32,000 nt of DNA from Geotalea uraniireducens Rf4 (GCF_000016745.1 NC_009483.1:3750001-3782000), one strand, 5' to 3'; shown: positions 4,160 through 22,412, counted from the stretch's first letter. Notes: generated by a model not told the origin, from the letters alone. Numbers and translations: made by a program.

Positions 4160-5370
4160 CTCCACCTCCGGACGAGGTTTTCGTATCCCGAGAGCACGTT
4201 TCCAACAATTTTTTCCCAGCTGTACTTACTCTCGACAAGCTCTCTCCCCCCCGCTACGAGCCGTGCCGAAACCTCATCGTCGCGAAGGACAGTGAGTACG
4301 CAACGGGCAAAGGAGAGTGGGTCTCCTCCTATAAGGATGTCGGTGCCATCCTTGACGAAAATACCCTCCGCCCCGACAGGGGTTGATACGACGGGTATTC
4401 CCCAGGCAAAGTAGTTCAGAATCTTCACCCTCATTCCTCCGCCGACGTGAAGGGGAACAACGGCAACACGCGATTTCCGTAGGTAAGGGAGTGGATCGTC
4501 GACGAAGCCTAGCACCTGAACGGTTTCCGAACGGTATCGCTGCAGCCATTCCGGCGTATTCTTGCCGATGATGTAAAACTTTGTCTTCGGGGACTCCTTA
4601 AGAACCAGCGGCAATACCTCCTCCAGAAACCAAACAATCCCTTGTTGGTTGGGAATCCAATCCATCGCTGCGATGGAAACGATGTCCGTCGCACTTGGTT
4701 CTCGTTGGACTGTGGAAATAGTGGAAATGTCAACTCCCGCGGGTGCGACATGAACTCGCTCTTCAACAGACGGATCGAGATCGATAAAACGATGCCTGTC
4801 CTCCTCGGTGATCGCCAGAATCCTATCGAAAATACCTATCGTACGCTTTTCGTACTCCTTCAGCCTTTGTGCCTGAATCTCCATTACGTGCTTCAACAGG
4901 GGGTTCCGCAGGCTGTCGGCGTAGCGCGTGAGAATCGTGTGCTCCGCATTGTGCTGCCTCAGCACTACCGGAATATGAGGAAAGTGCTTCTTGATCTGAA
5001 CCCCGTAATGCGCCATGTGTAGATGCTCTACATGCACAAGATCAATACTGCTTTGAGTTAAAGCCTGAAGAATGGACTCCAGCATATCGGGATAAATGTA
5101 CTTTGCCATGTTATACGGCAAATTAGAAAATAAAGTATTCAGTGCTAAGCGATACTTCTTGTTTTTAACGTCCTTTGAAATAAACTTAAAGGAATTAACT
5201 AAAGAAGCAAGTTCAGATGTTTCGCAATTCGATTCTTCTTCTGGAATAATTGACTGCAACAAAACATTGCAACCCTTAGAGCTAAATTGCTTTAAGAAGT
5301 TAAATAGAACAATTTTACCTCCGTCAATAGGCGGATAAGGTAGTCTATGTGTTAGCACGAGTATTTGCAT
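4156..5370 (-). CDS. Glycosyltransferase, family 4
   Basis: 404 aa. MQILVLTHRLPYPPIDGGK at the N-terminus and ...PLHVGGGMRVKILNYFAWGIPVVSTPVGAEGI in the C-terminal domain are typical of GT4 retaining transferases. Confidence 0.88.
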   Translation of the reverse strand: MQILVLTHRLPYPPIDGGKIVLFNFLKQFSSKGCNVLLQSIIPEEESNCETSELASLVNSFKFISKDVKNKKYRLALNTLFSNLPYNMAKYIYPDMLESILQALTQSSIDLVHVEHLHMAHYGVQIKKHFPHIPVVLRQHNAEHTILTRYADSLRNPLLKHVMEIQAQRLKEYEKRTIGIFDRILAITEEDRHRFIDLDPSVEERVHVAPAGVDISTISTVQREPSATDIVSIAAMDWIPNQQGIVWFLEEVLPLVLKESPKTKFYIIGKNTPEWLQRYRSETVQVLGFVDDPLPYLRKSRVAVVPLHVGGGMRVKILNYFAWGIPVVSTPVGAEGIFVKDGTDILIGGDPLSFARCVLTVLRDDEVSARLVAGGRELVESKYSWEKIVGNVLSGYENLVRRWR

Positions 5371-5373
5371 AAA

Positions 5374-6663
5374 TTAAAGTCTTATCCTTATTCTTTTGAG
5401 TGGATAACAAATCAGATGCATTAGAACAAATAATAGAGCAATTGTCATAAAAGCGACTACTGCAGTTTCAAAACTCGTTCGATATAGTGAAAGCAGTACC
5501 ATCAAGTAATATATAGAAAATATTTTTATATATTTGTTATCTGAAAGCATACCTTTATATAATATTGATGTTAATAAACTAAATAAGATTGCAATCACAA
5601 TAACGCCTACATATCCTGCGTTCATATAACCCATTACTGGAATAGTAAATGTTTGCGTAGAATTATTATAAAACCCTTCACCAAATAGCTTGGTAGTAAT
5701 AATAGCTTCAATACCTGTGTCAGGTTTGAACGGTAATAAAGCGCGAGGCACTATGGCAATAGGTGTTAATAATATATATTTAAACAATAACCAGTCGAAC
5801 TGATACCTATTGTGCAAAAGCATAATCCCGCAGTCTACCGGATTAAGGTCTGTGAGTAATGACAATAATGGAACAAGAAGTGAATATTGCCGATCCAATG
5901 TAGAAAGATTTAGTGATAATCCAGCCCTAGCTAGATTTGCAAAAAATAGTACATTTATGATTATGAAACCAAATAAAATAACATTTATAATTCGTAATCT
6001 CAGCCGACCAATAGAAATGTAATAAAAAAAGATCGACAGCAGCAATACAGCGTATTCAGTCCTACTGGCTGTTTTATTTATATAAAAGAGCATACAAAAC
6101 AAAACAACTACTGCTATAATTACAAATACATAATTTCTATCGATATATCTTATCATCAGTATCATCATTGGCAATACTGATAAACTAGCAAGAACATTCA
6201 AATACCAGCTACCTTGCGCCTGGTTCATTGTCACTTCGAACAAATTATATGATTTATAGAAATACAAGAAATCATGATATTTAACAACATTTGCAATATA
6301 TGATATGGCAATAAAAATGGCTGTCAACAATACAAGAGAAGTGAATGAATGTTTATTGAAATTGAATAGTTTTGTAGCCCTGTCACACACGTTTTTATTA
6401 TTAACCCAAAATAACAAGCCTATTGAAAATATGGTGATGAATAATAAACCGATAAAAAGATAAAGATTTATGCTAGTAATGGCCTCTTTATCAAAATAAA
6501 ACAAATAGAGATCATATTTAAACATTAATAGGGGTTTTAATGAGTAGAGAACAAAATGCCATGCAAAAACAAGCATCAAAGCATAGTTTGAATGCTTCTT
6601 AAAGCAAATTGTTGCGAAAAATATACATGCAATTGCATTCGCTATGATTAATAAAATTGTCAT
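5374..6663 (-). CDS. wzy: Polytopic membrane protein, O-antigen polymerase (Wzy)-like
   Basis: 429 aa, very AT-rich and almost entirely hydrophobic, with roughly 10 or more TM-like segments. It is embedded between glycosyltransferases and sits in the same cluster as a Wzx flippase. The assignment rests on context and topology, not on a recognised motif. Confidence 0.6.
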   Translation of the reverse strand: MTILLIIANAIACIFFATICFKKHSNYALMLVFAWHFVLYSLKPLLMFKYDLYLFYFDKEAITSINLYLFIGLLFITIFSIGLLFWVNNKNVCDRATKLFNFNKHSFTSLVLLTAIFIAISYIANVVKYHDFLYFYKSYNLFEVTMNQAQGSWYLNVLASLSVLPMMILMIRYIDRNYVFVIIAVVVLFCMLFYINKTASRTEYAVLLLSIFFYYISIGRLRLRIINVILFGFIIINVLFFANLARAGLSLNLSTLDRQYSLLVPLLSLLTDLNPVDCGIMLLHNRYQFDWLLFKYILLTPIAIVPRALLPFKPDTGIEAIITTKLFGEGFYNNSTQTFTIPVMGYMNAGYVGVIVIAILFSLLTSILYKGMLSDNKYIKIFSIYYLMVLLSLYRTSFETAVVAFMTIALLFVLMHLICYPLKRIRIRL

Positions 6664-6665
6664 AT

Positions 6666-7559
6666 TTATAAATAAAAGCCCTCAACAAAGCTTAAATTTA
6701 TCAATTTAAATACGTCATAGTTTTTTTTAAATCTTTTTGAGAATACAAAACATGTAATGGTCTTAATATAAAATAGAACACAATAAATATATTTGAGAAC
6801 ATTATTCTGTTTCAGTAAATAATAAACTTTATTTCGTATCATATGTCTTATTGTAAAGTGACTTTCAAGACCACCGGTTAAACTGCTTACTTTATGATAG
6901 AAATCAATATGTGGGTAATAGTACATGGATATATTATGTTTGTATAGCCTATAACAAAAGTCAGTATCATCGAAGTAAACAAAATACTTTTCGTCCATGA
7001 TTCCGACTATGTCAAAAACACACTTCTTAATTAACATACAACATGTTGGTGCATATTGTATTTGTTTTTGATAATCATACTGCCCATTATCATGTTCATT
7101 CATTCCAATATGGTAGTTTGAATAACCTTTCCATTTGCTAAAATAACCACCTGCAAACCATATTAATGATTTATTGTCATGATATATCATTTTTGGGACA
7201 ATCACATCGCAATTGCATTTACTCATTGAATCCATTAGTTTTTCAAGCATAGATTGTTCGAATTCAACATCATTATTAATTAAAAGTATATGCCCGCACT
7301 CGTTAGAAACTGCTTTTTCAATACCTTGATTATTACCTGCTGCAACACCTACATTTGTATTGTTGGGTAAAATAACTATACGAGAATCATCATAGTTTTT
7401 GAGCCGACCTAAAGTGTCATCAGTTGACGCATTATCAACAATGTAGAGAATGAAGATTTCATACGATTGCGAAAGCATAGACTCCATGAAATCTTCAATT
7501 ACATCACCGCTATTATAGGTGACTGTGACGACACCAACTTTAGAAGGTCTTTCAACCAT
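6666..7559 (-). CDS. Glycosyltransferase, family 2
   Basis: The N-terminus VGVVTVTYNSGDVIEDFMESMLSQSYEIFILYIVDNASTDDT, together with DDTDFCYR, fits GT2 of the rhamnosyltransferase-like subgroup. Confidence 0.85.
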   Translation of the reverse strand: MVERPSKVGVVTVTYNSGDVIEDFMESMLSQSYEIFILYIVDNASTDDTLGRLKNYDDSRIVILPNNTNVGVAAGNNQGIEKAVSNECGHILLINNDVEFEQSMLEKLMDSMSKCNCDVIVPKMIYHDNKSLIWFAGGYFSKWKGYSNYHIGMNEHDNGQYDYQKQIQYAPTCCMLIKKCVFDIVGIMDEKYFVYFDDTDFCYRLYKHNISMYYYPHIDFYHKVSSLTGGLESHFTIRHMIRNKVYYLLKQNNVLKYIYCVLFYIKTITCFVFSKRFKKNYDVFKLINLSFVEGFYL

Positions 7560-8682
7560 GAAGCAATCCCTTCGACTTCATCTCATTCAGCGATGCTTCA
7601 TATTTGTCTGATTCCAGCTGTTGCGTTTCAGCCCATGCTAGGAATTTATTGATGCCTTCAGCAAATAATGTCCTTGGCTCATATCCAAGTTTCTCTCTGA
7701 TTCTAGTAATATCTGCTAGGTTATGTCGTATGTCACCGTCCCGGAACGCACCATTTACATTGATTTTTGATGAGCTACCAAAGTAGGATACTATTTTTTC
7801 AACAACTTCAAGAACCGTTGTTTTCTCACCGCTGCCAACATTTAGGGCAGCGATCGTATTTGGAGTAGTATGACTGATACTGCGCCATGTCGCCTCGACC
7901 ACGTCATCTATATAGACGAAGTCCCGGCTTTCCTGCCCGTCCTCAAATATATAAATCGGCTGACCAGCACGAGCTAAATTAGAAAATATTGCCAGTATGC
8001 CAGTGTATGGGTTTTTCAAAGATTGGCCAGGACCATAAACATTTTGATAACGCAGGGCATAAGCAGACAGTCCCATGCTTTCTGCAAAAAGTAATGTCAT
8101 TTGCTCTTGTATCTGTTTCGTAATGCCGTAAAAAGAGGACGGGCTGAATCTTGCTTCTTCGTCCGTAGGCAGCATCGAACACGTGGCATTACAGACGGGA
8201 CAGAGCGGATCATACAAGCCAGCTTTGAGATCACTCGTCTTTCTTTTGGATGGATAGACCACACCATGAGAAGTACAAGAATATTTGCCCTCGCCATATA
8301 CCGCTCTTGAGGATGCAACAACAATTTTATGTATGCTGTGGTTCTTATTATTAACAAGATAATCGAATATTACAGCGGTACCTTTAAGGTTGACGTCTTC
8401 ATACCTTACAACCTCATACATCGATTGTCCGGTGCCGGTTTCTGCGGCAAGATGCACCAACACATCTTGCCCTTGGAGCGCACGTGCGACTACTTCTGGA
8501 TCCCTGACATCGCCAACAATCAGATTTACACTCCCAGCTATGTCTGGCGGTAATATTTTAGATGTGCCATGAATTTGTTCGCTGAAGTTATCCAGAATGG
8601 TGACATGGCAATTCTCTGTCAGAAGCTTACGAGTCAGATTGGTACCGATAAAACCTGCCCCACCTGTTACTAAAACATTCAT
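7552..8682 (-). CDS. NAD-dependent nucleotide-sugar epimerase/dehydratase (extended SDR) with a Cys/His-rich insertion
   Basis: It has the Rossmann motif VLVTGGAGFIG and the catalytic segments ASSRAVYG ... YGITK (YxxxK). The start is chosen at ATG 8682 (MNVLVTGG), which overlaps the upstream stop as TGATG. The ORF-track start at 8700 lies inside the upstream gene and has no RBS. Confidence 0.85.
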   Translation of the reverse strand: MNVLVTGGAGFIGTNLTRKLLTENCHVTILDNFSEQIHGTSKILPPDIAGSVNLIVGDVRDPEVVARALQGQDVLVHLAAETGTGQSMYEVVRYEDVNLKGTAVIFDYLVNNKNHSIHKIVVASSRAVYGEGKYSCTSHGVVYPSKRKTSDLKAGLYDPLCPVCNATCSMLPTDEEARFSPSSFYGITKQIQEQMTLLFAESMGLSAYALRYQNVYGPGQSLKNPYTGILAIFSNLARAGQPIYIFEDGQESRDFVYIDDVVEATWRSISHTTPNTIAALNVGSGEKTTVLEVVEKIVSYFGSSSKINVNGAFRDGDIRHNLADITRIREKLGYEPRTLFAEGINKFLAWAETQQLESDKYEASLNEMKSKGLLHG

Positions 8683-9290
8683 CAGGATACTTTCTCCCAT
8701 TCATTTGAGTTGTGGTTATATCGTCTGATTAATTTTGCTGGTGTTCCTGCTACTAAACAATAATCTGGTATGTTCTGTGCGACCACAGTATTTGCTGCGA
8801 CAATACAATGTTTACCGATTGAAACCCCTGGAAGAATTACGCTGTTATTGTATATGTAGGTCTGGTCACCGATCGACACTGGACGCACTTCAATTTTCTG
8901 TAGATTTATGGGAATTTCAATATCGTCATATAAATGATTTATGTCTGTGATGGTAACGTTTGAAGTGATAACAACATTTTTGCCAATTGTAATATTTTTA
9001 GCACACGTTATGTGAGCATTTTGATGTATTTGAGTGTAATCGCCAACAATAAACTCTGGACTAAAGGTTTGAGAACCATATGCACCTAGTACTTCAATTC
9101 TGCAATTTTTAAATATTATGACTCTGCTGCCTAATGACCAATTCTTTAAACCTGAAAATAATATCGGCTTATTTATTAAACATCGTCTCCCCATGTGTTT
9201 AACAAATAATTTATAGAAAAGACTAGTTTTTATGGTTACGTATAAATTGCTTAACTTGTTAAGATAATCGTACGCATTGTATTTGAACAT
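8682..9290 (-). CDS. Hexapeptide-repeat (left-handed beta-helix) O-/N-acyltransferase
   Basis: 202 aa with repeated [LIV]-G-x-x-x-x hexads, for example ITIGKNVVITSNVTITD and SIGDQTYIYNNSVILPGVSIGKHCIVAANTVV. This is the WbbJ/Maa-like family. Confidence 0.8.
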   Translation of the reverse strand: MFKYNAYDYLNKLSNLYVTIKTSLFYKLFVKHMGRRCLINKPILFSGLKNWSLGSRVIIFKNCRIEVLGAYGSQTFSPEFIVGDYTQIHQNAHITCAKNITIGKNVVITSNVTITDINHLYDDIEIPINLQKIEVRPVSIGDQTYIYNNSVILPGVSIGKHCIVAANTVVAQNIPDYCLVAGTPAKLIRRYNHNSNEWEKVS

Positions 9291-9311
9291 GTCCTATTTA
9301 CCTCAGATTAG

Positions 9312-10211
9312 CTATTTCACTAGTGAAACCGCTATGATTTTAAGCAATTTCCTAATTATTTTTGCGATTAATTTATCAATTAAACTGTTTTTGACTGACT
9401 CGGAATTAACAATAGACCACATAAATAGTTTATTTATCCCACAAGCATGTTTAATATTATTTTGGTTTGAGTGCATCATAGCTATTTTCATGCTTTCAAA
9501 CGATAAACCAGGTGTAAGTCTGTTATTTATGCGAACTCGATAACGCCAAGTAGCGTTTGGGTAAACATATAACTTGGCATTAAATAAGCATCTTAATATA
9601 AAATCGCGATCTTCGAATAAAAGATTGTCATTAAAACCGCCCAACTCGTGAAATATTGATTTTCTTATAATAAATCTTTGATACGGCGCCTCCCAGTTGA
9701 ACAACATGTCCATAGTTAAAATATATTTATTTGTCAGCGTAATGGGATTTTTGCCAAAAAATTTGAATGCACTATTAGCGACTTGTTTGCTGTCTTCATC
9801 AATCAATTCAGAATCTGATATGACAACATCTGCATTATTTGATAACAAGAATTGCAATGGACCTGATATGCCGTTCACGAGAAACTCATCGTCACTTGCA
9901 ATCGTTGTAAGGTAATCACCTTTTGCAATTGAAACCAGTCTATTCAGAGTTTTGCAAATTCCTGCATTTTGTTGTTTTTCGCAGACAATCCTAGCAAATC
10001 GCCCAGAATGCTTACCTGCCCATTCTTTAGCTACGATATACGTATTATCACGTGATCCATCATCGATAATTATTAACTCGATATTTTCGTAATCACAGTT
10101 ATAGATGCTTTCTAAACATTGCATTACGTATTTATCATGATTATAAGCAGGTATAAGAATTGATACGAGTGGTTTATGTATAGATTCACTTATCTGGGAA
10201 TAATTAATCAC
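9312..10211 (-). CDS. Glycosyltransferase, family 2
   Basis: LVSILIPAYNHDKYVMQCLESIYNCDYENIELIIIDDGSRDNT is a classical GT2 N-terminal signature. ASDDEF serves as the DxD-like segment. Confidence 0.88.
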   Translation of the reverse strand: MINYSQISESIHKPLVSILIPAYNHDKYVMQCLESIYNCDYENIELIIIDDGSRDNTYIVAKEWAGKHSGRFARIVCEKQQNAGICKTLNRLVSIAKGDYLTTIASDDEFLVNGISGPLQFLLSNNADVVISDSELIDEDSKQVANSAFKFFGKNPITLTNKYILTMDMLFNWEAPYQRFIIRKSIFHELGGFNDNLLFEDRDFILRCLFNAKLYVYPNATWRYRVRINNRLTPGLSFESMKIAMMHSNQNNIKHACGINKLFMWSIVNSESVKNSLIDKLIAKIIRKLLKIIAVSLVK

Positions 10212-11452
10212 CTACATTGTCTCCATACCAGAATAAACATTACCATCCAATAAAGCACATAGTTTGAAAAATAGGCCATTAAGACACCTTGTACCCCATA
10301 TATATCAGTCAAATAATAAACCATACCAATCCACGTAACTGTAAACAATACCTCTGTAATAATAAATGTTCTTACCATAGTGCGGCCTAGCATTACATAC
10401 GCTAACAACCAACTTCCGATCTTAACAACGTCGCCTGCCAATTGCCAGGCAAACAAACCTTTCATAGGAGAAAAATCAGGAGAAAACAGTGTTAGAACAA
10501 TCCAGTCACGAAGCAGGTAAATAGTCCCAGCACCCAGTACAGCAAGTGGTAATATTAATTTGTAGCCTTGTATAATTTCCTGCTTTAACTCCCTATTGTC
10601 ACGAATTTCAGAAAGTCGTGGAAGGTAATAAATGCCCAGTGTCGAGGTAACCAACAATAGATACATCTCACTTATCTTCGTTACCGCCTGCCAGTGCCCC
10701 GCAGTAGTCCAGCCCAAAGTTGTAGCGATGTGATTACGAACAATTATCTGGCTTGTTGGACCGACAGCAGCTGTCGTTAGAGCCATCAAAACAAATTTCG
10801 CTAAATTGCGTGCAATCGAACGATCAAAGTTCCCAATGAGGTTTTGGAGTCGAAACCAATCAGTCTTCAGACACATAGCAAATGTTACAATAAAAACAAT
10901 TGATTGATTGGTGGCTAAAGCGACCAGCGCCCCGTACAAGCTCCAGACACGAGCTAAAAAACCCGTTACAACAAGTGAAACCAAGCTCCCGGTAATATTT
11001 ACTATTACATAACGGCGAATGTCTTTCTTGCCGTTTAAGATAGCCAATAAAAGTGCATTAAATACAAAGAGCGTTAATGTTGCAGCAAACCAGAGAAATA
11101 CAGAACCGTAAGCTTCATTTTTTAGAAAAAGCAGTGCAAGTGAACGGTGAAATATTGCAATACCTAATGCAGCAAACAATGAACCGATAGCAACAATAAT
11201 TACAGCTGTACGCCAAACGGAACGCTGGCGTTCATCATCATCAAAATATTCAGCGGTATATTTCGTTACGCCGGTATTTATTCCTGCACTGGCAAATGTT
11301 GTAATCATGCCAATAGCATTTTGGAACTGACCAATAACCGCATAACCTGCAGGACCAACATATACTGCCAAAAGTTTGTTTAGACCCAATGCAGTGACAA
11401 GTTTGATGGCAACAGCAATACCGTTGAGAACGCTTGTTTTAAAAAGATTCAA
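10208..11452 (-). CDS. wzx: O-unit flippase, WzxE-like (polysaccharide biosynthesis protein family)
   Basis: 414 aa and polytopic. KLLAVYVGPAGYAVIGQFQN...GINTGVTKYTAEY and FAWQLAGDVVKIGSWLLAYV parallel E. coli WzxE segments as I recall them (KLLAVSFGPAGLG..., NGVTKYVAQY, FAWQLVGDVLKVGAY). Confidence 0.85.
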   Translation of the reverse strand: MNLFKTSVLNGIAVAIKLVTALGLNKLLAVYVGPAGYAVIGQFQNAIGMITTFASAGINTGVTKYTAEYFDDDERQRSVWRTAVIIVAIGSLFAALGIAIFHRSLALLFLKNEAYGSVFLWFAATLTLFVFNALLLAILNGKKDIRRYVIVNITGSLVSLVVTGFLARVWSLYGALVALATNQSIVFIVTFAMCLKTDWFRLQNLIGNFDRSIARNLAKFVLMALTTAAVGPTSQIIVRNHIATTLGWTTAGHWQAVTKISEMYLLLVTSTLGIYYLPRLSEIRDNRELKQEIIQGYKLILPLAVLGAGTIYLLRDWIVLTLFSPDFSPMKGLFAWQLAGDVVKIGSWLLAYVMLGRTMVRTFIITEVLFTVTWIGMVYYLTDIYGVQGVLMAYFSNYVLYWMVMFILVWRQCR

Positions 11453-14951: not shown

Positions 14952-16637
14952 TTACTCCTTGATCAATGTGATACCATCGGTTGAGACAAAGTTTTCTATC
15001 CGTTCAGCCTGCAGGGTGTAAAGTCCAGGCTCCGGCACCTCAACCATAGCGAACAAACGCGACAACCATTTAAGCGCTGGTTGATTACGAGGTCCATGCA
15101 GCACTCGGAATGCAACTTTACGACACCCGGTAAACAGCGACATGCCACGGATTGCACCAAGAATAATCGTATCTTCCAACTGGCGCCCTAAGGCGCGGCA
15201 ACTAACACATAATTCTTCAACAATTAGTTGATCATTATTGCGCTCGCATACGAGCACAGCAATCACACCGCTATCAGACAGGCGGTCCTTCATATGCACA
15301 CTGGCCACGCAAGCATTGACGCACTCTAGGCGTTCAGCCACTTCGGCTTGATTGAAACGCCGAAGTGCAAGATTAAACTGGTTGGTTTTATTGCACAAAT
15401 CGGCTAATCTGGATAGCTGATTAACAGGATTGTAGTGGTAGGTCAGCGAGACTTCCAGACTACGGAAATAGTCTGCCGTATCAAAAGTTTCTGCAAGCAA
15501 TTTTTCGCGCTCAGCATTGGCCTTCATATCCTGCACCCGCTTAGCGTCTTCATCTTCGATTTTCCAGCGCCATAAACCAGGGAAATGTTCCACTGCCAGT
15601 TGTGTCAGGCTAGCATCCAGATTGGCAAACACTGTGTGCACTTGCGGCAGTTGTGCCGCAACCGACGCTAACTCGCCAGGGTTATCGTCAACAAAAAGCA
15701 CTGCGTCTGGTGAAATACGTAATGTGTCGGCAATACGCTTGATAGCGGTGGCCTTCTCCCCCCACGACACTTCCGTGACCGAGAAATCGCCCCACTTCAG
15801 TGGATAGTCGTCACGTTTGTTAAATAGAGTTTCAACATCTGGACGCTCATTACGAGACACAAGTGTGATAAAAATTCCGCGTTGCAGCAGTGACTTTAAA
15901 AAGAATTGAAAATTACGATGTTGCTGCGAAAGTTGGACCCCTTTAATTCCATCTTCACCCAAGACTCCAATATGCAGGGTATTGTCGAGATCGAGTGCCA
16001 CTGCTTTCATGGGGGGGAACACCGCTGCAGGTAACCAGTGACAAGCCAGTTTCCGTGCTATTAGAGGCTGGGCAGCATTACTGACCGGCGTACCGGCCAT
16101 AGCGACACTGCGAAAATCGATCAGATTGACACCGGCTTCGCTGCAGACAGCACCGACATCGGCGAAATAAACTGCTGGCATTGACGTGAAAGATGTTTGC
16201 AGTTCTATCCGCTGCGCATCATTTTCCAGCCAGGTAGCAATAATAACCGGTGCGGTGGTGGCGCTCCGCAACGCTTTCAGTCTGGCGATCAGCCACTCGG
16301 TCCATGCCGCGAAACTCGTATTAGAAAGGTAACGACTGCTATCGAGCCAGATTAGTTCAACATCCGCCGGAGTGTGATTTGCAAACATCAGTGTATCATC
16401 GTAGTCACCGAGCCTGAACTCGGCTTGCCAACAACCATAAGCAATATAAGGGAGTGTTAAGCTGGCAACAGGTTCAAAAGCATGGTTGCGCCATACATTC
16501 ACGAAGATTTTTTTCATTCCAGCCACATCCGGGACAATGCTTTGCAAAGCAAGTCGACTAGGACGGGTCGCAAATAGTGTAGATTGCGCTTCATAGCGCC
16601 AGAAACTCGTATTTAAATGGCGTTGAATTAAATCCAT
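14952..16637 (-). CDS. FkbH-like protein (HAD-superfamily phosphatase subfamily IIIC with an acyl-transfer domain)
   Basis: 561 aa. The HAD motif I is VALDLDNTLHIGVLGEDG. Also present are FVDDNPGE and the C-terminal ELCVSCRALGRQLE segment, matching the conserved SCR-x-LGR cysteine segment of FkbH-family enzymes. It lies next to an ACP gene. Confidence 0.85.
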   Translation of the reverse strand: MDLIQRHLNTSFWRYEAQSTLFATRPSRLALQSIVPDVAGMKKIFVNVWRNHAFEPVASLTLPYIAYGCWQAEFRLGDYDDTLMFANHTPADVELIWLDSSRYLSNTSFAAWTEWLIARLKALRSATTAPVIIATWLENDAQRIELQTSFTSMPAVYFADVGAVCSEAGVNLIDFRSVAMAGTPVSNAAQPLIARKLACHWLPAAVFPPMKAVALDLDNTLHIGVLGEDGIKGVQLSQQHRNFQFFLKSLLQRGIFITLVSRNERPDVETLFNKRDDYPLKWGDFSVTEVSWGEKATAIKRIADTLRISPDAVLFVDDNPGELASVAAQLPQVHTVFANLDASLTQLAVEHFPGLWRWKIEDEDAKRVQDMKANAEREKLLAETFDTADYFRSLEVSLTYHYNPVNQLSRLADLCNKTNQFNLALRRFNQAEVAERLECVNACVASVHMKDRLSDSGVIAVLVCERNNDQLIVEELCVSCRALGRQLEDTIILGAIRGMSLFTGCRKVAFRVLHGPRNQPALKWLSRLFAMVEVPEPGLYTLQAERIENFVSTDGITLIKE

Positions 16638-16670
16638 CAGATCACCCTTTACCTGATAAGAGAAACAGAA

Positions 16671-16765
16671 GGGTCAAATCTCAGCTCATGACACCCCACT
16701 TCCTATTCCCACATTATAATGTTCAATCACCCAATACATCAGGTTCTACGTTCAAATGCTTTCCT
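16671..16765 (-). repeat. Copy 1 of the ~90-bp 'downstream element' that follows type-1 small genes
   Basis: GGGTCAAATCTCAGCTCATGACACCCCACTTCCTATTCCCACATTATAATGTTCAATCACCC..GTTCTACGTTCAAATGC aligns with 18255-18338 at roughly 85% by eye, and partially with 18625-18702. Confidence 0.85.
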
Positions 16766-17038
16766 TCACCCGATATACACCCCATGATGCGCCTCGGTAT
16801 CGGCCCGGTGAGCGGAAAGGTCGGCAGACACGGCATCCATCTTCTTGCTGAGGCGTTCATCTACGGCATCAATCTTTTTATTCAATGCCCCAATCATAAA
16901 GGAGTTATGCTCGATCTTTTCATTCAGCTCATCAAATCGGTTATCAATCTTTCTGTCAAGAGCAGCATGACTTTCAAGAACCAGATCGAATTTGCTGCTG
17001 ATATCTTCGAGTAAGACTTCCAAATTCTCTTTTTTCAT
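16766..17038 (-). CDS. Small coiled-coil protein with tail box, type 1 (copy A; tail shortened by a 2-bp insertion)
   Basis: 90 aa. There is a strong RBS (GGAGGAACGT-ATG). The sequence is MKKENLEVLLEDISSKFDLVLESHAALDRKIDNRFDELNEKIEHNSF...SADLSAHRADTEAHHGVYIG*. It is paralogous to copies C and D. Confidence 0.8.
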   Translation of the reverse strand: MKKENLEVLLEDISSKFDLVLESHAALDRKIDNRFDELNEKIEHNSFMIGALNKKIDAVDERLSKKMDAVSADLSAHRADTEAHHGVYIG

Positions 17039-17113
17039 ACGTTCCTCCGTTATCCGTGAACGTCCGTGACAAACAAAGGTTTACAACTCAAAATTCAAAA
17101 CTCAAAATTGCCC

Positions 17114-17401
17114 CTAATCCCCTTCCTTCACCCGATACACCCCGCGATGCGCCTCGGTATCCGCCCGGTGGGCAGCTACATCAGCGGCAATTCTATCTAT
17201 TTTCTCGCAGAGACTCGTCTCGACCTGTTCCAGTTTCTCCGAAAGCATCTGGTGTCCTTCAGCCACAACTGTCAGCCCATGCTGAAACCCTTCAGTTTGC
17301 AGCGTTATTTGGTGGTCAAACTCGGCAATAATTTCGTGCTTGAAATGTTCCAGCTTGGCATCGAACTTAGCGGAAACACTTTCCAGCTTGGCATCGAACA
17401 T
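17114..17401 (-). CDS. Small coiled-coil protein with tail box, type 2 (copy B; a 5'-truncated near-duplicate of E, possibly a pseudogene)
   Basis: 95 aa. MFDAKLESVSAKFDAKLEHFKHEIIAEFDHQITLQTEGFQHGL...AADVAAHRADTEAHRGVYRVKEGD*. It differs from 20952..~21205 by about a dozen mismatches over ~250 nt by eye. No Shine-Dalgarno sequence precedes its ATG, and homology to E breaks inside the 33-bp repeats. Confidence 0.55.
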   Translation of the reverse strand: MFDAKLESVSAKFDAKLEHFKHEIIAEFDHQITLQTEGFQHGLTVVAEGHQMLSEKLEQVETSLCEKIDRIAADVAAHRADTEAHRGVYRVKEGD

Positions 17402-17477
17402 AGTGGGAAGGGAGCTAAAGGGGGACGTAGTTGATTTGTTGACTTGTTTCTACAAGTCCTCAGCTCCCCGTTCCCTG

Positions 17478-17594
17478 CTACCCGCCCAACAGCGGCACTT
17501 CAAAACCTGCCTGTATGAAATGCTCATCAAAACTCAACGCCACCTTCAGCCGCCCTTCCTTCATGACCACAAAGTAAAAACGGTCCACAAACCC
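17478..17594 (-). pseudogene. Relic of the C-terminal third of a PIN-domain (VapC-like) toxin
   Basis: Hand translation gives (stop,stop)SWGFVDRFYFVVMKEGRLKVALSFDEHFIQAGFEVPLLGG*. The pattern vD..sFvvM+..g...A.sFD.HF.qaGF is the typical C-terminus of VapC PIN toxins. Two stops lie immediately upstream, and there is no start and no partner antitoxin. Confidence 0.5.
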
Positions 17595-17709
17595 CCAGCT
17601 TTATCAGGACGCCCCTTATACAGGACAAGCGCGTTCTCGAATCAAAAGGGGGCAAGCCGCCAGGATCAGGCTTCCAAGAATACAAGTTCCAAAGGCCTTA
17701 TCTGCCGTC

Positions 17710-18000
17710 CTATTCCGATCTTAATAAGCGCTTTCCGTGGACGACAGCAGCAACAGTTATGAGTTCCCCTTCAATACGATAAATAACCCTGTAGCTGAAC
17801 ACGAAATGCTCTCTGAACGCATCGTCCTTCATCTCCGGCACAACACGCCCCGAAAGGGGGAATTCCGAGAGTTGCCTCGTGACGCCGATGATTTTCGTAA
17901 CGACCGCCTTTGCATAAAAGGGGGAATCCCTTTCGATGTACTCTGCTATCGCTTCAACATCTGCCAGCGCCTGAGGCGACCATCTTACGCTGTGTGCCAT
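17710..18000 (-). CDS. Type II toxin, RelE/ParE family
   Basis: 96 aa. MAHSVRWSPQALADVEAIAEYIERDSPFYAKAVV...LSEFPLSGRVVPE...REHFVFSYRVIYRIEGELITVAAVVHGKR is a typical ParE/RelE-superfamily layout. It overlaps the upstream antitoxin gene by 16 nt. Confidence 0.88.
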   Translation of the reverse strand: MAHSVRWSPQALADVEAIAEYIERDSPFYAKAVVTKIIGVTRQLSEFPLSGRVVPEMKDDAFREHFVFSYRVIYRIEGELITVAAVVHGKRLLRSE

Positions 18001-18173
18001 TTCTTAAGGCGAGCTTCAGCCTCCTCCTGAGAGTAAGTACCCTGTTCTTCTGCCACCTGAAGGCCATGCTGAATCTTTTCGATGACATAGAGATGGTACT
18101 GGATATCCTCCAGGGAACAATTGTCGGGAAGCTTGTTCAGCAAGTTCTTTACATCATCCTTAGCAGTATTCAC
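17985..18173 (-). CDS. Antitoxin partner of the RelE/ParE toxin
   Basis: The ORF is open from 18254 (a TTG). The best-supported start is GTG 18173, preceded by AAGGAG at 6-nt spacing. That gives (M)NTAKDDVKNLLNKLPDNCSLEDIQYHLYVIEKIQHGLQVAEEQGTYSQEEAEARLKKWHTA, small and acidic. It is translationally coupled to the toxin. Confidence 0.7.
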   Translation of the reverse strand: MNTAKDDVKNLLNKLPDNCSLEDIQYHLYVIEKIQHGLQVAEEQGTYSQEEAEARLKKWHTA

Positions 18174-18254
18174 GCCATGCTCCTTAAAAACCGGTCCCTT
18201 TCTCTCTCGCCCGTTTGCTTCGCTCACTTGGAGAAGCATAAGGGAGAAGCACAA

Positions 18255-18338
18255 GGGTCAGATCTCAACTTTTGACAGTCCCCATTTCCTATTCCCACAT
18301 CATAATGTTCAATCACCCGATACATCTACGTTCTACGT
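18255..18338 (-). repeat. Copy 2 of the downstream element
   Basis: It aligns with 16671-16765 and contains the ACATCATAATGT near-palindrome and two to three GTTCTAC-type heptamers (18323-18343). Confidence 0.85.
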
Positions 18339-18590
18339 TCAAATGCTTTCCTTCACCCGATAAACTCCATGGTGGGCCTCGGTATCAGTCCGGTGCGCAG
18401 CCAAGTCTGCAGCGACACTGTCGATTTTTTCGTTAAGTACATTAATTAGAAATGAATTGTGCTCAATTTTTTCATTTAATTCACTACGGGTATCACGGAT
18501 CTCTGCCCTAAGAGATTCATGCCCCTCAAGCACCAAATCAAATTTGCTCCGTATATCTTCAAGCAGTATTTCCAGATGATCTTTTTGCAT
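18339..18590 (-). CDS. Small coiled-coil protein with tail box, type 1 (copy C)
   Basis: The start is chosen at ATG 18590 (AAGGAGGTTTTG-ATG). The sequence is MQKDHLEILLEDIRSKFDLVLEGHESLRAEIRDTRSELNEKIEHNSFLINVLNEKIDSVAADLAAHRTDTEAHHGVYRVKESI*. The longer ORF-track version (to 18659) has no RBS. Confidence 0.8.
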   Translation of the reverse strand: MQKDHLEILLEDIRSKFDLVLEGHESLRAEIRDTRSELNEKIEHNSFLINVLNEKIDSVAADLAAHRTDTEAHHGVYRVKESI

Positions 18591-18624
18591 CAAAACCTCC
18601 TTGTCTCCGCTTAGCTGGAATAGA

Positions 18625-18702
18625 GCCTTTCCTATTACCAGCTCAAAACGCTCAATCACCAGATATATCAGGGTTCTACGTTCTACGGTCTACAGTCTAC
18701 GT
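18625..18702 (-). repeat. Copy 3 (partial) of the downstream element, including a 5-unit heptamer array at 18673-18707
   Basis: CCTTTCCTATTACCAGCTCAAAACGCTCAATCACCAGATATATCAGG is followed by GTTCTAC GTTCTAC GGTCTAC AGTCTAC GTTCAAA. It is homologous to copies 1 and 2 but has more heptamer units. Confidence 0.75.
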
Positions 18703-18765
18703 TCAAATGCTTTCCTTCACCCGATACACCCCGTGATGCGCCTCAGTATCCGCCCGATACGAGGC
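18703..18765 (-). pseudogene. Orphan tail-box relic 1 (3' end of a type-1 small gene, no 5' part)
   Basis: Hand translation gives ...(stop)IVCSASYRADTEAHHGVYRVKESI*. It has the same tail as copy C, with an in-frame stop just upstream and no start codon. Confidence 0.8.
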
Positions 18766-18813
18766 AGAGCAGACAATCTAGACCAATCTCAACAGGGACA
18801 CAAGGAAAGAATA

Positions 18814-19197
18814 TCATGCCCCTTGATCAATCAGGATTCTTGCTATGACTTTTTTCATTTCGGGAACATGCTCTGAACAAACCACATATATTGTTTCCGC
18901 ATCAATATCGAAATAGTGGTGAGTAATAATATCCCTCATTCCCTTTGCCTTTTTCCAGTCTATTTCAGGATAATTGACAAGTAGTTTTGAATCTGTCAAT
19001 TTATCTACCTGCTTTAATACCTCTCCGATATTAATCAGCTGCATGCAAATACTGTCCAGCTTCTCAAGACCAATATCGTCTTTCAGGAAATCATCACTTG
19101 ATTGAATTGCTTGAAATCTTTTGAATATTTGATCCAATGCCCAGATAATATTCTTGAAATCCTCAAGAAGCAGCTCCCTGTCATACATATATAGCAT
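18814..19197 (-). CDS. hepT: HepT-type toxin (DUF86, RNase of MNT-HepT modules)
   Basis: 127 aa. GMRDIITHHYFDID contains the R-x4-H-x-Y motif. It overlaps the MNT gene by 17 nt. Confidence 0.88.
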   Translation of the reverse strand: MLYMYDRELLLEDFKNIIWALDQIFKRFQAIQSSDDFLKDDIGLEKLDSICMQLINIGEVLKQVDKLTDSKLLVNYPEIDWKKAKGMRDIITHHYFDIDAETIYVVCSEHVPEMKKVIARILIDQGA

Positions 19198-19477
19198 CCT
19201 GCTCTATTCTGCGTTTCAGGGTTTCATTCATTTTGTCTCTAAGCCTTACCACGTCAACTTTACCACCCAAGGCTTCTTCAACTGCCTGCTTCACTCCTAT
19301 CAGATAATATAAATCAGGCTTTTCCAGTTCTACCACAATATCAATATCACTCTCTTCAGTAACATCGCCCCTCGCGTAAGACCCGAATATTCCAATCCTT
19401 TTTACCTTAAACTCTGTTGCAAAAAAGTCTTTGTGGCTACGCAAAAAATCAATTATTTGACCGGTCGTGCGCTCCAT
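19181..19477 (-). CDS. mntA: MNT-type nucleotidyltransferase antitoxin (MntA)
   Basis: 98 aa. GIFGSYARGDVTEESDIDIVVE shows the G-S-x-x-R-G ... D-x-D minimal nucleotidyltransferase signature. The RBS is GAGGAGG. Confidence 0.88.
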   Translation of the reverse strand: MERTTGQIIDFLRSHKDFFATEFKVKRIGIFGSYARGDVTEESDIDIVVELEKPDLYYLIGVKQAVEEALGGKVDVVRLRDKMNETLKRRIEQDAIYV

Positions 19478-19493
19478 AGCTCCTCCTCAATAC

Positions 19494-19742
19494 TTACCCT
19501 TCCTTCACCCGATAAACCCCATCATGCGCCTCGGTATCGGCCCGATGGGCAGCTACATCATCGGCGACGGCATCGATTTTCTTGTTCAGGGTGTCGATCT
19601 TGAAATCAACCAGATCAAAGCGTTCATCGGTCTTGCGGCCAAGCTCACGAATCTCACTGCGAAGCACTTCATGCCCTTCGAGGACCAGGTCAAACTTGCT
19701 GCTGATATCTTCGAGTAAAACTTCCATATTCTCTTTTTTCAT
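19494..19742 (-). CDS. Small coiled-coil protein with tail box, type 1 (copy D)
   Basis: The start is chosen at ATG 19742 (GGAGGAACGT-ATG, the same leader as copy A). The sequence is MKKENMEVLLEDISSKFDLVLEGHEVLRSEIRELGRKTDERFDLVDFKIDTLNKKIDAVADDVAAHRADTEAHDGVYRVKEG*. Its stop lies only 16 nt from the mntA start. Confidence 0.8.
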   Translation of the reverse strand: MKKENMEVLLEDISSKFDLVLEGHEVLRSEIRELGRKTDERFDLVDFKIDTLNKKIDAVADDVAAHRADTEAHDGVYRVKEG

Positions 19743-19835
19743 ACGTTCCTCCGTTAGCCGTGAATGTCCATGAACATCCGTGGCAAACAAAGGTTTACAA
19801 CACAAAATTCAAAACTCAAAATTGCCTCAAATCAT

Positions 19836-19879
19836 CTTCCTTCACCTGATACATCCCATGATGCGCCTTCCTTATCGGC
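19836..19879 (-). pseudogene. Orphan tail-box relic 2 (degenerate, with a 1-nt indel)
   Basis: CTTCCTTCACCTGATACATCCCATGATGCGCCTTCCTTATCGGC aligns to the box with substitutions and one extra nucleotide. It abuts the stop codon of the ATPase gene at 19880. Confidence 0.7.
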
Positions 19880-20278
19880 TTAAATCATATTCAGGTGAAT
19901 TGCGCTCTTTTGTTTAAGACAACCCCCTATGGCTGGCAAAGAACGTATCACATCCTGATATACGAGATCGGATGCAAGTACCGTAAGATTTCCGTGGGCC
20001 ATCCGTGCCTCTATCAGCCTCCCCATCTCTCTAGCAGCAGCGGGACGAGACCGCAAAATCCAGAGGTTGTCAACAAGAAGATTCGTAATCATGGTATATC
20101 TGTTGAAATAATCAGCAAATTTGCCCTGTACGACAGATTGTGCCATCTCATCGACGACCTGCTCACTGCCGACCCTCATGACGCTTTGGACCCCGTGCAA
20201 GGTCTCGGTTATCATCTTGAGAAGCCTGGTTTTCCCAGCCCCTGAAGGACCGTAGACGAATAGAAGATTTGCAGACAT
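19880..20278 (-). CDS. Mini AAA+ ATPase resembling DnaA/Hda domain III (N-terminal alpha/beta part only)
   Basis: NLLFVYGPSGAGKTRLLKMI (Walker A) ... FNRYTMITNLLVDNLWIL (Walker-B position, DD replaced by DN) ... GNLTVLASD aligns by eye with E. coli DnaA [20 protein letters not shown]...YRSVDALLIDDIQFF...NQQIILTSD. The start is chosen at ATG 20278 (GGAGGATAAA-ATG). The ORF-track start is 20290. Confidence 0.65.
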   Translation of the reverse strand: MSANLLFVYGPSGAGKTRLLKMITETLHGVQSVMRVGSEQVVDEMAQSVVQGKFADYFNRYTMITNLLVDNLWILRSRPAAAREMGRLIEARMAHGNLTVLASDLVYQDVIRSLPAIGGCLKQKSAIHLNMI

Positions 20279-20348
20279 TTTATCCTCCATTTCTTCAGAA
20301 AGGGACAGGCTGCCAGCGGGAACTCTTACTTCCCCCGGTACTCAGCGC

Positions 20349-20651
20349 TTAGGCATTTCTCAAACGACTTCTCGCCCATGCCGGATTTTTTCTGCAATCA
20401 AGAATCGCATATACGAGAATATCGTTGCCATCGATTCGATAGTAGACAGCAAACGGAAACCGCTTTGAAAGCATCCGGTAATATACGAGAAAAAATGCAG
20501 GATGAATGCCTGCGTGGATGAGCAATGAATCTATATCAGAGAAAAGCGAATCGAGGAAATACCCTCCAAGACCGCTTTCCTGTTTTTCATAGAAATGAAA
20601 GCCATCCGTCAGATCCTGTGATGCTGCTTCAAAAAGGCGAATCTTCTTCAT
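20349..20651 (-). CDS. Type II toxin, ParE/RelE family
   Basis: 100 aa. MKKIRLFEAASQDLTDGFHFYEKQESGLGGYFLDSLFSDIDSL...FPFAVYYRIDGNDILVYAILDCRKNP is the typical ParE-like pattern. It shares an ATGA overlap with the antitoxin gene. Confidence 0.85.
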   Translation of the reverse strand: MKKIRLFEAASQDLTDGFHFYEKQESGLGGYFLDSLFSDIDSLLIHAGIHPAFFLVYYRMLSKRFPFAVYYRIDGNDILVYAILDCRKNPAWARSRLRNA

Positions 20652-20863
20652 AGCGATTCACGGATCTTCTTTTTGGCATCGTCCCAGTCAATGAAGCAAG
20701 CTTCACCAACCGTTACGGCTTCTTCGCGCTGGGCGAGGACATCTCCATGCCATGGGGGTGAAAGTGTTTCGCTGGCGTTCCGGCACAAATCTTCCCACAA
20801 GCGTTCCATGACACTGATCTTTTCCGCCGTTGTCAGATTCTCCAACTTGATTGCCACTCCCAT
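20648..20863 (-). CDS. Antitoxin ('addiction module component', TIGR02574-like)
   Basis: 71 aa. LTTAEKISVMERLWEDL....SPPWHGDVLAQREEAV..GEACFIDWDDAKKKI matches the L-x-x-x-E-R-x-x-L-x-x-x-L-W-D-S-L ... W-H ... W-E-E-V-K layout of that family. The RBS GGAGG lies 6 nt upstream. Confidence 0.8.
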   Translation of the reverse strand: MGVAIKLENLTTAEKISVMERLWEDLCRNASETLSPPWHGDVLAQREEAVTVGEACFIDWDDAKKKIRESL

Positions 20864-20951
20864 AACCAGCCTCCATTCTTATGCGACTTGCGTGGTCAGG
20901 CTAGACTTTCGGACATTAGCCACGCACAAATCACCCCCACTCAACAAATCC

Positions 20952-21317
20952 TTAATCCCCTTCCTTCACCCGATACACCCCGCGATGCGCCTCGGTATCC
21001 GCCCGGTGGGCAGCTACATCAGCGGCAATTCTATCAATTTTCTCGCAGAGACTCGTCTCGACCCGCTCAAGCTTCTCCGAAAGCATCTGGTGCCCTTCAG
21101 CCACAACAGTCAGCCCATGCTGAAACCCTTCAGTTTGCAGCGTTATTTGGTGGTCAAACTCGGCAATGATTTCGTGTTTGAATTGTTCCAGCTTGGCATC
21201 GAACATAGTGGAAACACTTTCCAGCTTGGCATCGAACTTAGCGGAAACATCTCCCAGCTTAGCATCAACGACCTTAATCAACATCTGCTCAATACGTACT
21301 AGATCATTCTCATCCAT
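20952..21317 (-). CDS. Small coiled-coil protein with tail box, type 2 (copy E, full length)
   Basis: The start is chosen at ATG 21317 (GGAGG 8 nt upstream). The sequence is MDENDLVRIEQMLIKVVDAKLGDVSAKFDAKLESVSTMFDAKLEQFKHEIIAEFDHQITLQTEGFQHGLTVVAEGHQMLSEKLERVETSLCEKIDRIAADVAAHRADTEAHRGVYRVKEGD*. Confidence 0.8.
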   Translation of the reverse strand: MDENDLVRIEQMLIKVVDAKLGDVSAKFDAKLESVSTMFDAKLEQFKHEIIAEFDHQITLQTEGFQHGLTVVAEGHQMLSEKLERVETSLCEKIDRIAADVAAHRADTEAHRGVYRVKEGD

Positions 21318-21365
21318 AACAAAAACCTCCAACGAAATCTGGGGTCACGCGGGGTTTCATAATGT

Positions 21366-22412
21366 TCAGTAAACCGAAAACCCATCATGCGTCTCGGTAT
21401 CCGCCCCGGCCACGCTTTTCAGATACCATCGGTACACGTTACGCAGTCCCTCTTCCAGATTAATCTTATGTTTCCAGCCAATGGCATGAATCCGCGAGAC
21501 GTCGGAAAGCTTGCGCGGCGTGCCGTCGGGCTTGGTTGAATCGAAGACCAGTTCGCCGGCAAAGCCGACTATTTCCTTGATCCGCAGCGCCAGTTCACTG
21601 ATGGTGACCTCCTCGCCGCTGCCGATGTTGATCAAGGCAGGGACTGGGGACTGGGGACCAGGAATTAGCAATGAACGGTACTGTTCTTCCGGCAATGTCA
21701 TTAGAAACAGGCAGGCGTCGGCCAGGTCATCCACGTGGATGAACTCCCGCTTTGGAGTTCCCGACCCCCAAATGGTGACGTGCGCCTGGTGTTTTTCTCC
21801 GTTCCCCGTTCCCCGTTCCCCGTTCCCCATTTTTGCCTCGTGAAACTTGCGGATCAGCGCAGGAAGGACATGGGACGTTTCCAGGTCAAAGTTATCATTG
21901 GGGCCGTAGAGGTTGGTCGGCATGGCGGAGACAAATCTGGTGCCGTACTGACGGTTGTAGGACTGGCACATCTTGATGCCGGCAATCTTGGCAATGGCGT
22001 AAGCTTCGTTGGTGGGCTCAAGGGGGCCGGTGAGCAGGTACTCCTCCTTGATCGGCTGCGGCGCCAACTTCGGATAGATGCAGGTGCTGCCGAGGAAGAG
22101 GAGCTTTGTCACGCCATTCAGCCAGGCATGGTGGATGACGTTGGTCTGGATCATCAGGTTGTCATAGATGAATTCGGCTGGGAAGCTGTTATTGGCGACA
22201 ATGCCACCGACCTTGGCTGCGGCAAGGAAGACGTATTCAGGCTTTTCCTTATGAAAGAAGTCAGCTACTGCCGCCTGATTGCGCAGGTCGAGCTCACTAC
22301 TGGTCCTTACTACTATATTTTTGTAGCCTTCCGCTTCAATTTTCCTGACAATGGCAGAACCAACCAAGCCCCTATGTCCGGCCACATATATTTTTGAATC
22401 CTTATCCACCAT
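21366..22412 (-). CDS. fcl: GDP-L-fucose synthase (GDP-4-keto-6-deoxy-D-mannose 3,5-epimerase/4-reductase)
   Basis: [48 protein letters not shown] and [17 protein letters not shown] are collinear with E. coli Fcl as I recall it. ATG 22412 is preferred over the TTG at 22421. The protein carries two repeat-encoded loop insertions and a foreign C-terminal tail (see findings). Confidence 0.92.
21801..21828. repeat. Perfect heptanucleotide tandem repeat (GTTCCCC)x4 inside fcl
   Basis: Read directly: units at 21801-07, 21808-14, 21815-21 and 21822-28. On the coding strand (GGGGAAC)4 encodes [13 protein letters not shown]. Confidence 0.95.

Follow-up and report, generated by a model that had tools for sequence, protein, structure and literature searches.

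The 32,000-nucleotide window analysed here, the whole stretch NC_009483.1:3750001-3782000 of Geotalea uraniireducens Rf4, contains five minus-strand open reading frames (ORFs), A to E, which an earlier reading of the DNA without database searches (the sequence-only reading) had singled out for a common C-terminal tail, AHRxDTEAHxGVYRVKE, and had divided into two body types. All five are present as described, and they are paralogues within a single large family of small coiled-coil proteins that has not been described before. The five genes, with protein lengths in amino acids (aa), are:

16752-17038, minus strand: gene A, a type 1 member longer by one 11-residue unit; its ORF ends at 16766, the ancestral stop being at 16752-16754
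17114-17401, minus strand: gene B, a 5'-truncated copy of E with no Shine-Dalgarno site
18339-18590, minus strand: gene C, 83 aa, intact type 1; ATG start (MQKDHLE) and an A-like middle segment, LNEKIEHNSF
19494-19742, minus strand: gene D, 82 aa, intact minimal type 1, starting MKKENME
20952-21317, minus strand: gene E, 121 aa, intact type 2, starting MDENDL, with VVAEGHQML as motif 1 and the tail AHRADTEAHRGVYRVKEGD

Only C, D and E are intact. In the tail of gene A a 2-nt AT insertion disrupts the ORF, and without it the reading is restored to GVYRVKESI followed by a stop. Gene B has 95% DNA identity to E over 298 nt (repeat D2) and is probably a pseudogene. Gene E holds two and a half 33-bp FDAKLE-type repeats, and the product of D is 100% identical to a Geotalea (Geobacter) uraniireducens hypothetical protein. 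Strong Shine-Dalgarno sites were found, as had been claimed, in four of the five (GGAGGA in A and D, AGGAGG in C, GGAGG in E). The proteins are acidic (predicted pI 4.9-5.3). Since no signal peptide or hydrophobic segment was visible on reading the family sequences, the family is presumably cytoplasmic. A degenerate 39-nt pattern of the tail matched five times in the window, against none expected from 100 shuffles; four of these are the tails of genes B to E and one is an orphan tail at 18712-18750, that of A being missed because of its insertion.

Homologues of D numbered 718 among 90%-identity clusters, and those of E 43. Beyond the window at least 1,122 clusters, formed at 50% identity, match with E<=1e-3, and 274 of their representatives reach 1e-10; every one of the 150 listed measures 68-189 aa and lacks an added domain. 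Members come mainly from the Geobacterales and Desulfuromonadales (Desulfuromonadota), and also from the Syntrophales (including Syntrophus), Syntrophorhabdales and Desulfobacteria, the last three groups being represented by metagenome-assembled genomes (MAGs) so labelled; occasional members occur in MAGs labelled Acidobacteria, Binatia, Lentisphaerae and Helicobacteraceae. The family loci lie on chromosomal contigs from Desulfuromonadota, Syntrophales and further lineages. A tblastn search with D gave no match in PLSDB plasmids, INPHARED phages or IMG/VR, and a mobile-element origin was rejected on this ground.

The view that the family is uncharacterised was borne out. The five proteins fall below every curated Pfam and NCBIfam cut-off, no confident known-domain match was found for any of them, and PHROGs, PADLOC and a comparison of the 69-sequence family profile with all PDB sequences returned weak coiled-coil noise. 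The known families that appeared (Apolipoprotein, DUF1664, Lpp, ZorA tails and tail fibres) did so as sub-threshold coiled-coil noise, and PF28217, given in the precomputed annotation of two homologues, was dismissed as a weak FAM81B match. In the literature no paper containing the tail motif was found, and a query for 'heptapeptide repeat' in Geobacter gave nothing relevant.

The sequence-only reading had pictured a single tail tag attached to variable bodies. This did not hold, for types 1 and 2 align over the whole core and share a second motif, and they therefore form one superfamily with a length-variable middle. Both carry an N-proximal motif 1, K(F/L)D.(V/L).EGH(E/Q).L, and a C-terminal block, KID.(V/I)A..L.AHRxDTEAHxGxYRVKE. 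In an alignment of 69 divergent members E22, L27, H66, D69, T70, E71, H73 and E81 are conserved in at least 90%, and R67 is invariant.

The tail peptide is under purifying selection. One genome per species was scanned with the peptide pattern [DE][LV]xAHR[ASK]DTE, which gave 129 loci and, from these, 113 distinct tail sequences for a codon census. The invariant tail residues use all synonymous codons: the first His is CAC in 73 and CAT in 40, the second CAT in 70 and CAC in 43, Asp is GAT in 61 and GAC in 51, Glu GAG in 66 and GAA in 46, and Tyr TAT in 51 and TAC in 32, with six codons in use for Arg and four for Thr. Between loci, the pairwise proportion of synonymous differences (pS) is saturated at 0.76-0.80, and that of nonsynonymous differences (pN) is low, at 0.14 for the tail and 0.31 for the motif-1 block. 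Within the window the tails of C and D give pS 0.59 and pN 0.09, those of C and E pS 0.65 and pN 0.06, and codons 1-27 give pS 0.53-0.82 against pN 0.08-0.14. The earlier argument that selection acts on the peptide and not only on the DNA, drawn from the mostly synonymous differences among the tails in the window, is thus upheld and extended by the saturation between genomes; when nonsynonymous and synonymous change were taken separately for tail and body, pN was well under pS in both blocks.

Near-identical homologues have lengths of 82, 93, 104, 115 and 127 aa and differ by whole DEKLSKKIDAV units; other members have 7-residue units such as KVDSLEV, RFEQVDA and RMDKLDG. The units are encoded by 33-bp tandem arrays whose copies are 87-90% identical, for example at 8159-8266 of locus L003 and at 21186-21266 in E. 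Because they lie in such tandem arrays, gain and loss of repeats by slippage or unequal exchange is plausible, and since each adds a whole hendecad or heptad, the register of the coiled coil is preserved. Three members pass the gathering cut-off (20.8) of the KID repeat, PF02524, namely P0160 (65.8 bits), P0164 (25.8) and P0196 (25.9). The five window proteins, which carry none or one extra unit, have no KID match at E<=1. In a tblastn search P0160 matched annotated bdr genes on 489 Borrelia/Borreliella plasmids, with E down to 2e-17, and alignment of a B31 Bdr with the family profile by hhalign gave 91.6% probability over only 45 columns at the start of the rod. The KID-like region of P0160 also matches 11 Thermus plasmids in PLSDB. 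A further match of P0160 is an 'apolipoprotein A1/A4/E family protein' encoded beside a tape-measure gene on a Borrelia puertoricensis plasmid.

Structure prediction of single chains, which had been suggested together with the original description, gave one uninterrupted helix each for D and E. In the AlphaFold model of D the helix covers residues 3-72, with a mean predicted local distance difference test score (pLDDT) of 89.5 and about 95 in the body; in that of E it covers residues 3-110 (mean pLDDT 92). The last 10 or so residues of both are of low confidence and predicted to be disordered. A helical hairpin joining motifs 1 and 2 within one chain was rejected, the helices of D and E being straight. 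Large hydrophobic residues at 49, 52, 56, 59 and 63 follow a 3-4 spacing with one 3-4-4 stutter, and the same register puts H66 (d), T70 (a), H73 (d) and Y77 (a), together with H24 and T38, on core positions. R67 (e) lies opposite the conserved D/E62 (g), and Arg67, Asp69 and Glu71 flank the core residues His66, Thr70 and His73.

The genomic context of relatives was sampled from 109 family genes in 83 loci, whose 962 neighbour proteins were clustered all-against-all. Flanking genes are co-oriented in 75-80% of cases, with a median gap of about 90 nt. Up to six family copies occur in 8 kb, and tandem copies are frequent: L007 has six tail motifs, L010 has five, and L008, L014 and L021 have three apiece. 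The top neighbour cluster is the MNT nucleotidyltransferase (18 genes spread over 12 loci, with 10 immediately next to a family gene), followed by a sensor kinase (10 loci), Gmd (9), PDDEXK_3 (8), Wzt (7) and an acetyltransferase (7), and then by HepT and MarR-like proteins (6 each) and DegT and Wzx (5 each). Polbeta/NTP_transf_2 and HepT lead the downstream Pfam families, and the toxin-antitoxin types beside family genes comprise ParE, HicA, PIN, Phd and MNT/HepT. A link with toxin-antitoxin operons, proposed from the window, thus stands as an enrichment, MNT being the commonest neighbour cluster, and falls as a fixed operon: the types are heterogeneous, and no neighbour cluster occurs in more than 12 of the roughly 83 loci.

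Of the 128 large genes closest to family members, the best-represented families almost all belong to nucleotide-sugar synthesis or polysaccharide assembly (GDP_Man_Dehyd/Epimerase, RmlD, NTP_transferase, Wzx, GT1/GT4, Wzz, Wzi and UDP-glucose dehydrogenase). Family genes follow wzi in Citrifermentans bemidjiense (L001) and in L003, and lie between wzm and wzt in L002, a related MAG. Between the same two genes L002 has an MNT/HEPN pair adjoining the family genes, and ahead of this pair stands a duplicated and diverged stretch corresponding to about the first 70 wzt codons (6550-6786 compared with 7707-7900). The wzt piece suggests an insertion with target duplication, and the arrangement is a further sign of islet rearrangement by duplication and insertion.

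The window itself is a Wzx-type O-antigen/extracellular polysaccharide (EPS) locus, with genes for HldE, Gmd, Fcl, a methyltransferase, DegT, Wzx and GT2 and GT4 glycosyltransferases, and the islet with A to E sits between the conserved gmd-fcl pair and the low-GC serotype-specific genes. From 5000 to 11000 the GC content is 28-43%, against 48-60% elsewhere; this stretch spans the putative polymerase, Wzx and glycosyltransferase genes and is typical of the horizontally exchanged serotype-specific part of O-antigen loci. The 429-aa ORF at 5374-6663, which has no Pfam match, may be a Wzy-like polymerase. On the minus strand the islet reads fcl, E, an antitoxin/ParE-like pair, a DnaA/IstB-like fragment, an orphan tail, D, the MNT/HepT pair, a second orphan tail, C, an antitoxin/ParE pair, B, A and a 561-aa ORF without a Pfam match. 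Its features other than the five genes are:

16694-16740, 18280-18326 and 18623-18669: conserved 47-nt non-coding element containing GATGTATCGGGTGATTGAACATTATGATGTGGGAATAGGAA, after A, C and the 18.7-kb orphan tail
17710-18254, minus strand: small antitoxin-like ORF and ParE toxin, downstream of C
18325-18340 and 18673-18704, also 17088-17109 and 19799-19821: 7-nt tandem repeats
18709-18760, minus strand: orphan tail remnant RADTEAHHGVYRVKESI with its stop codon, after the HepT stop codon; the downstream element is the same as after A and C (repeats D1, D5 and D6)
18814-19477, minus strand: MNT/HepT toxin-antitoxin pair, 16 nt downstream of D
19836-19879, minus strand: partial orphan tail, starting at the stop codon of the DnaA-like fragment and followed by a leader as between B and A (repeat D4)
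19880-20290, minus strand: P-loop fragment of 136 aa, matching only the ATPase core of DnaA/IstB (PF00308, E=2e-10)
20349-20863, minus strand: toxin-antitoxin pair 3' of E, an Unstab_antitox antitoxin and a weak ParE-like toxin
21366-21410, minus strand: degenerate tail in frame at the fcl 3' end, where it supplies the final 15 codons of the 351-aa GDP-L-fucose synthase ORF

The gaps to the toxin-antitoxin genes agree with those first reported, 16 nt for D, 88 nt for E and about 165 nt for C, the last measured as about 166 nt to a GTG start with an AAGGAG site; to an alternative TTG start of the same ORF the distance from C is 84 nt. The 136-aa P-loop ORF is probably a gene fragment, cargo of the islet and outside the family; the same arrangement recurs in the Logan contig L090. 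About 300 nt between the ParE gene and B (17402-17709, minus strand) hold no convincing ORF and are probably degraded sequence from the event that truncated B.

The window thus has eight co-oriented tail copies within 4.7 kb, three of them without a gene body: beyond A to E there are the two orphans and the degenerate copy that ends fcl, all three missed in the sequence-only reading. The 15-codon extension of fcl is a family tail joined to the element found 3' of A and C, and a family gene was apparently truncated against fcl in a rearrangement. The 47-nt element includes a second copy of TATCGGGTGA, and part of it also lies 3' of fcl. Directly 3' of tail copies there are 7-nt tandem repeats (CGTAGAA-type and TTTTGA(A/G)-type), whose number varies by copy. 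Remnant tails occur in other genomes too (L007:3440, L041:3364 and L047:5647). Their left ends differ, that at L041:3364 being an internally deleted gene and those at L007:3440 and L047:5647 beginning at different codons, and because the left ends vary the orphans are read as decayed gene remnants, not as defined sites.

Several searches at the DNA level were negative. There was no Rfam covariance-model match at E<=1 on either strand of 16000-22000 and no inverted repeat of at least 25 nt in 16500-21500; the search for minus-strand terminator-like sites found none between genes, its only two matches both lying inside the ParE-like ORF. Phage_integrase was absent from the most frequent Pfam families in three neighbour scans (25 listed per scan). 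An integron array of gene cassettes and attC sites was rejected in view of the missing inverted repeats and integrase, the variable left ends of the orphans and the lack of conservation of the tail DNA between genomes. Diversity-generating retroelements place repeats at gene 3' ends. As a candidate, such an element with its variable and template repeats (VR/TR) was set aside when the neighbour scans gave no pointer to it, no reverse transcriptase search or check for a mutagenic pattern having been made.

We tentatively propose, with slightly less than even confidence, that these proteins are homo-oligomeric rods of adjustable length whose C-terminal head is a candidate for binding a metal ion or a partner protein. 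Each protein would form one long alpha-helix, which we infer to assemble most likely into a homo-oligomeric coiled coil with three parts: a conserved N-proximal module, LE.LLEDI..KFDLVLEGH..L; a middle rod, the length of which steps by heptads or hendecads through 21-bp or 33-bp tandem repeats; and a head, AHRxDTEAH, with His66, Thr70 and His73 predicted to lie in the core (d, a, d), followed by a flexible G.Y.V.E peptide. The putative functional site, for a metal ion or for docking of a partner, would be made up of the polar core layers of His and Thr together with the flexible end, and the repeat-encoded rod would set a variable distance from this site to the N-terminal module. The genes appear to travel as small co-oriented cassettes, which gather with toxin-antitoxin pairs in variable islets, very often in surface-polysaccharide operons, and their conserved ends repeatedly remain as remnants when the islets are rearranged.

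Some observations weigh against the proposed head and its core layers. In type 2 relatives Gln, Tyr or Phe often stands in place of His24, which therefore cannot belong to a universal site. Some members have Pro or Lys where others have Thr70 (DPD, DPE, DKE), and such variants may suit a helix break or a capping box better than a continuous coiled-coil core. Among the 962 neighbour proteins there is no conserved partner gene to receive a docking peptide. The codon census is partly biased because its loci were retrieved by a peptide pattern; H73, Y77, V79 and E81 lie outside that pattern, so their conservation is no artefact of ascertainment.

Other explanations place the conserved entity elsewhere. 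If the tail were a DNA-level element (a recombination site, an attC-like boundary, a miniature inverted-repeat transposable element or a structured RNA) and the ORFs incidental products of repeats, one could understand why eight same-orientation tails in 4.7 kb separate cassettes, three of them body-less, and why a Logan unitig breaks exactly at two tail copies. Against this, the tail DNA is synonymously saturated across genomes and the peptide invariant; the Rfam, inverted-repeat and integrase searches were all negative; the left ends of the orphans differ as they do in decayed genes; and the motif always lies 2-9 codons before the stop, at the end of a conserved helical ORF. This explanation is already largely refuted, and we give it almost no credence. 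It is improbable, too, that the proteins are a third component (regulator, chaperone or adaptor) of the adjacent type II toxin-antitoxin systems, especially MNT/HepT. Each of C, D and E has a co-oriented pair directly downstream, D at its very short distance from MNT, and MNT, Polbeta/NTP_transf_2 and HepT are prominent around the relatives as well. Yet most of the 109 family genes have no such neighbour, the neighbouring types are mixed, family genes often run in tandem up to six without interleaved toxins or stand between ordinary biosynthetic genes, and the median intergenic gap is about 90 nt.

The abundance of copies, tandem duplications, pseudogenes and remnants in one islet, its position at the junction of the conserved gmd-fcl genes and the low-GC serotype-specific part, and the toxin-antitoxin insertion in L002 flanked by a duplicated wzt piece would all be expected of selfish or neutral cassettes kept by frequent transfer, whose practical effect would be to provide recombination homology in polysaccharide loci. 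We nevertheless consider it unlikely that the family has no cellular role, given the strong long-term purifying selection on two motifs in a family that spans several classes, the lack of plasmid, phage or IMG/VR matches and the absence of any associated mobility gene found among the neighbours. Nor do we think it likely, at about the same level, that the proteins are of one kind with the Borrelia Bdr/KID-repeat family and work as Bdr does. The three members that pass PF02524, the matches of P0160 to bdr genes, the hhalign result, the multi-copy nature of both groups and their length variation in 11-residue steps point that way. Set against them are the ends of the proteins, a membrane anchor in Bdr and a polar HRxDTExH tail here, and the position of the five window proteins below the KID cut-off; moreover, only the low-complexity coiled-coil repeats are alike, which may reflect convergence, and the identification would explain little, the function of Bdr itself being unknown.

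The rod-and-head reading, for its part, makes the conserved His/Thr core layers a concrete and testable candidate for a metal- or partner-binding site. A more specific extension, which we regard as very doubtful, is that the proteins are a new class of free-standing, length-tunable coiled-coil adaptors for surface polysaccharide assembly, with the paralogues as contingency-type rulers or spacers. Each rod would then keep a His/Asp/Glu head, carrying a metal or a partner, a fixed distance away from the N-terminal module, and in Geobacter-like bacteria the set of rod lengths could alter glycan chain length or how the assembly complex is spaced. A small coiled-coil family of unknown function is no surprise in itself. 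This one is among the larger unnamed small-protein families of metal-reducing and syntrophic Desulfuromonadota and their relatives, and a family model is justified. Together with the toxin-antitoxin pairs in O-antigen/EPS operons it adds to the unexplained small 'guest' genes of polysaccharide loci, where its remnants mark recombination junctions. For the annotation of the window, A and B should be flagged as pseudogenes and the C-terminal extension of fcl as a fusion artefact of rearrangement.

Four known systems invite comparison. The Braun lipoprotein Lpp, a trimeric coiled coil, is likewise short and all-helical, with repeats of the K(I/V)D.L type. The scores against LPP (PF04728) and PRK15396 are 14-17 bits, below the cut-offs of 29.1 and 108, and Lpp chains in the PDB are sub-threshold too. 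The present family differs in having no signal peptide, no lipobox Cys, no terminal Lys for linkage to murein and another tail; in the lipobox test the sequences start MKKENLE or MDEND, and D is without any Cys. In the ABC-transporter-dependent O-antigen systems of E. coli O9a and relatives, WbdD governs chain length and its coiled coil serves as a ruler. WbdD is a bifunctional kinase and methyltransferase (PMC3482155). The likeness lies in a coiled coil of defined length encoded inside an O-polysaccharide locus. That of WbdD, however, sits in a large enzyme, whereas the present proteins are free-standing, 80-190 aa long and lack a catalytic domain; copies are also numerous outside polysaccharide loci, the locus in the window is of the Wzx and not the ABC type, and no homology to WbdD was detected. 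The amphipathic 11-mer helices of apolipoproteins and of late embryogenesis abundant (LEA)-type proteins have the same 11-residue periodicity. The Pfam Apolipoprotein model (PF01442) matched 11 of 69 members, all below its cut-off of 90 (best 42 bits, for P0160; 16-19 for window proteins), and in contrast to a lipid-binding face the hydrophobic stripe here is narrow (3-4 of 11 residues) with the a/d/e spacing of coiled coils.

The nearest known kind is the Bdr/KID-repeat family, also a repeat rod, multi-copy and length-variable. Bdr proteins are encoded on Borrelia plasmids and prophages and have been called unique to Borrelia (PMC4370689). In both families multi-copy small helical paralogues carry central 11-residue K-I-D repeats, the number of which varies. 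The Bdr C-terminus is a hydrophobic membrane anchor (B31 Bdr ends in LKWVLGIMGAMSITMIAGLIFAFISK), while the present proteins have an EGH motif, no hydrophobic segment and the polar end AHRxDTEAH-G.Y.V.E; their genes are chromosomal in Desulfuromonadota and relatives, D being unmatched in the plasmid and phage collections. Terminal modules, localisation signal and host range therefore differ. KID-type hendecad rods may be more widespread than the Bdr literature says, and their occurrence in free-living anaerobes, on a different terminal module, offers a second and more tractable system for the study of repeat rods.

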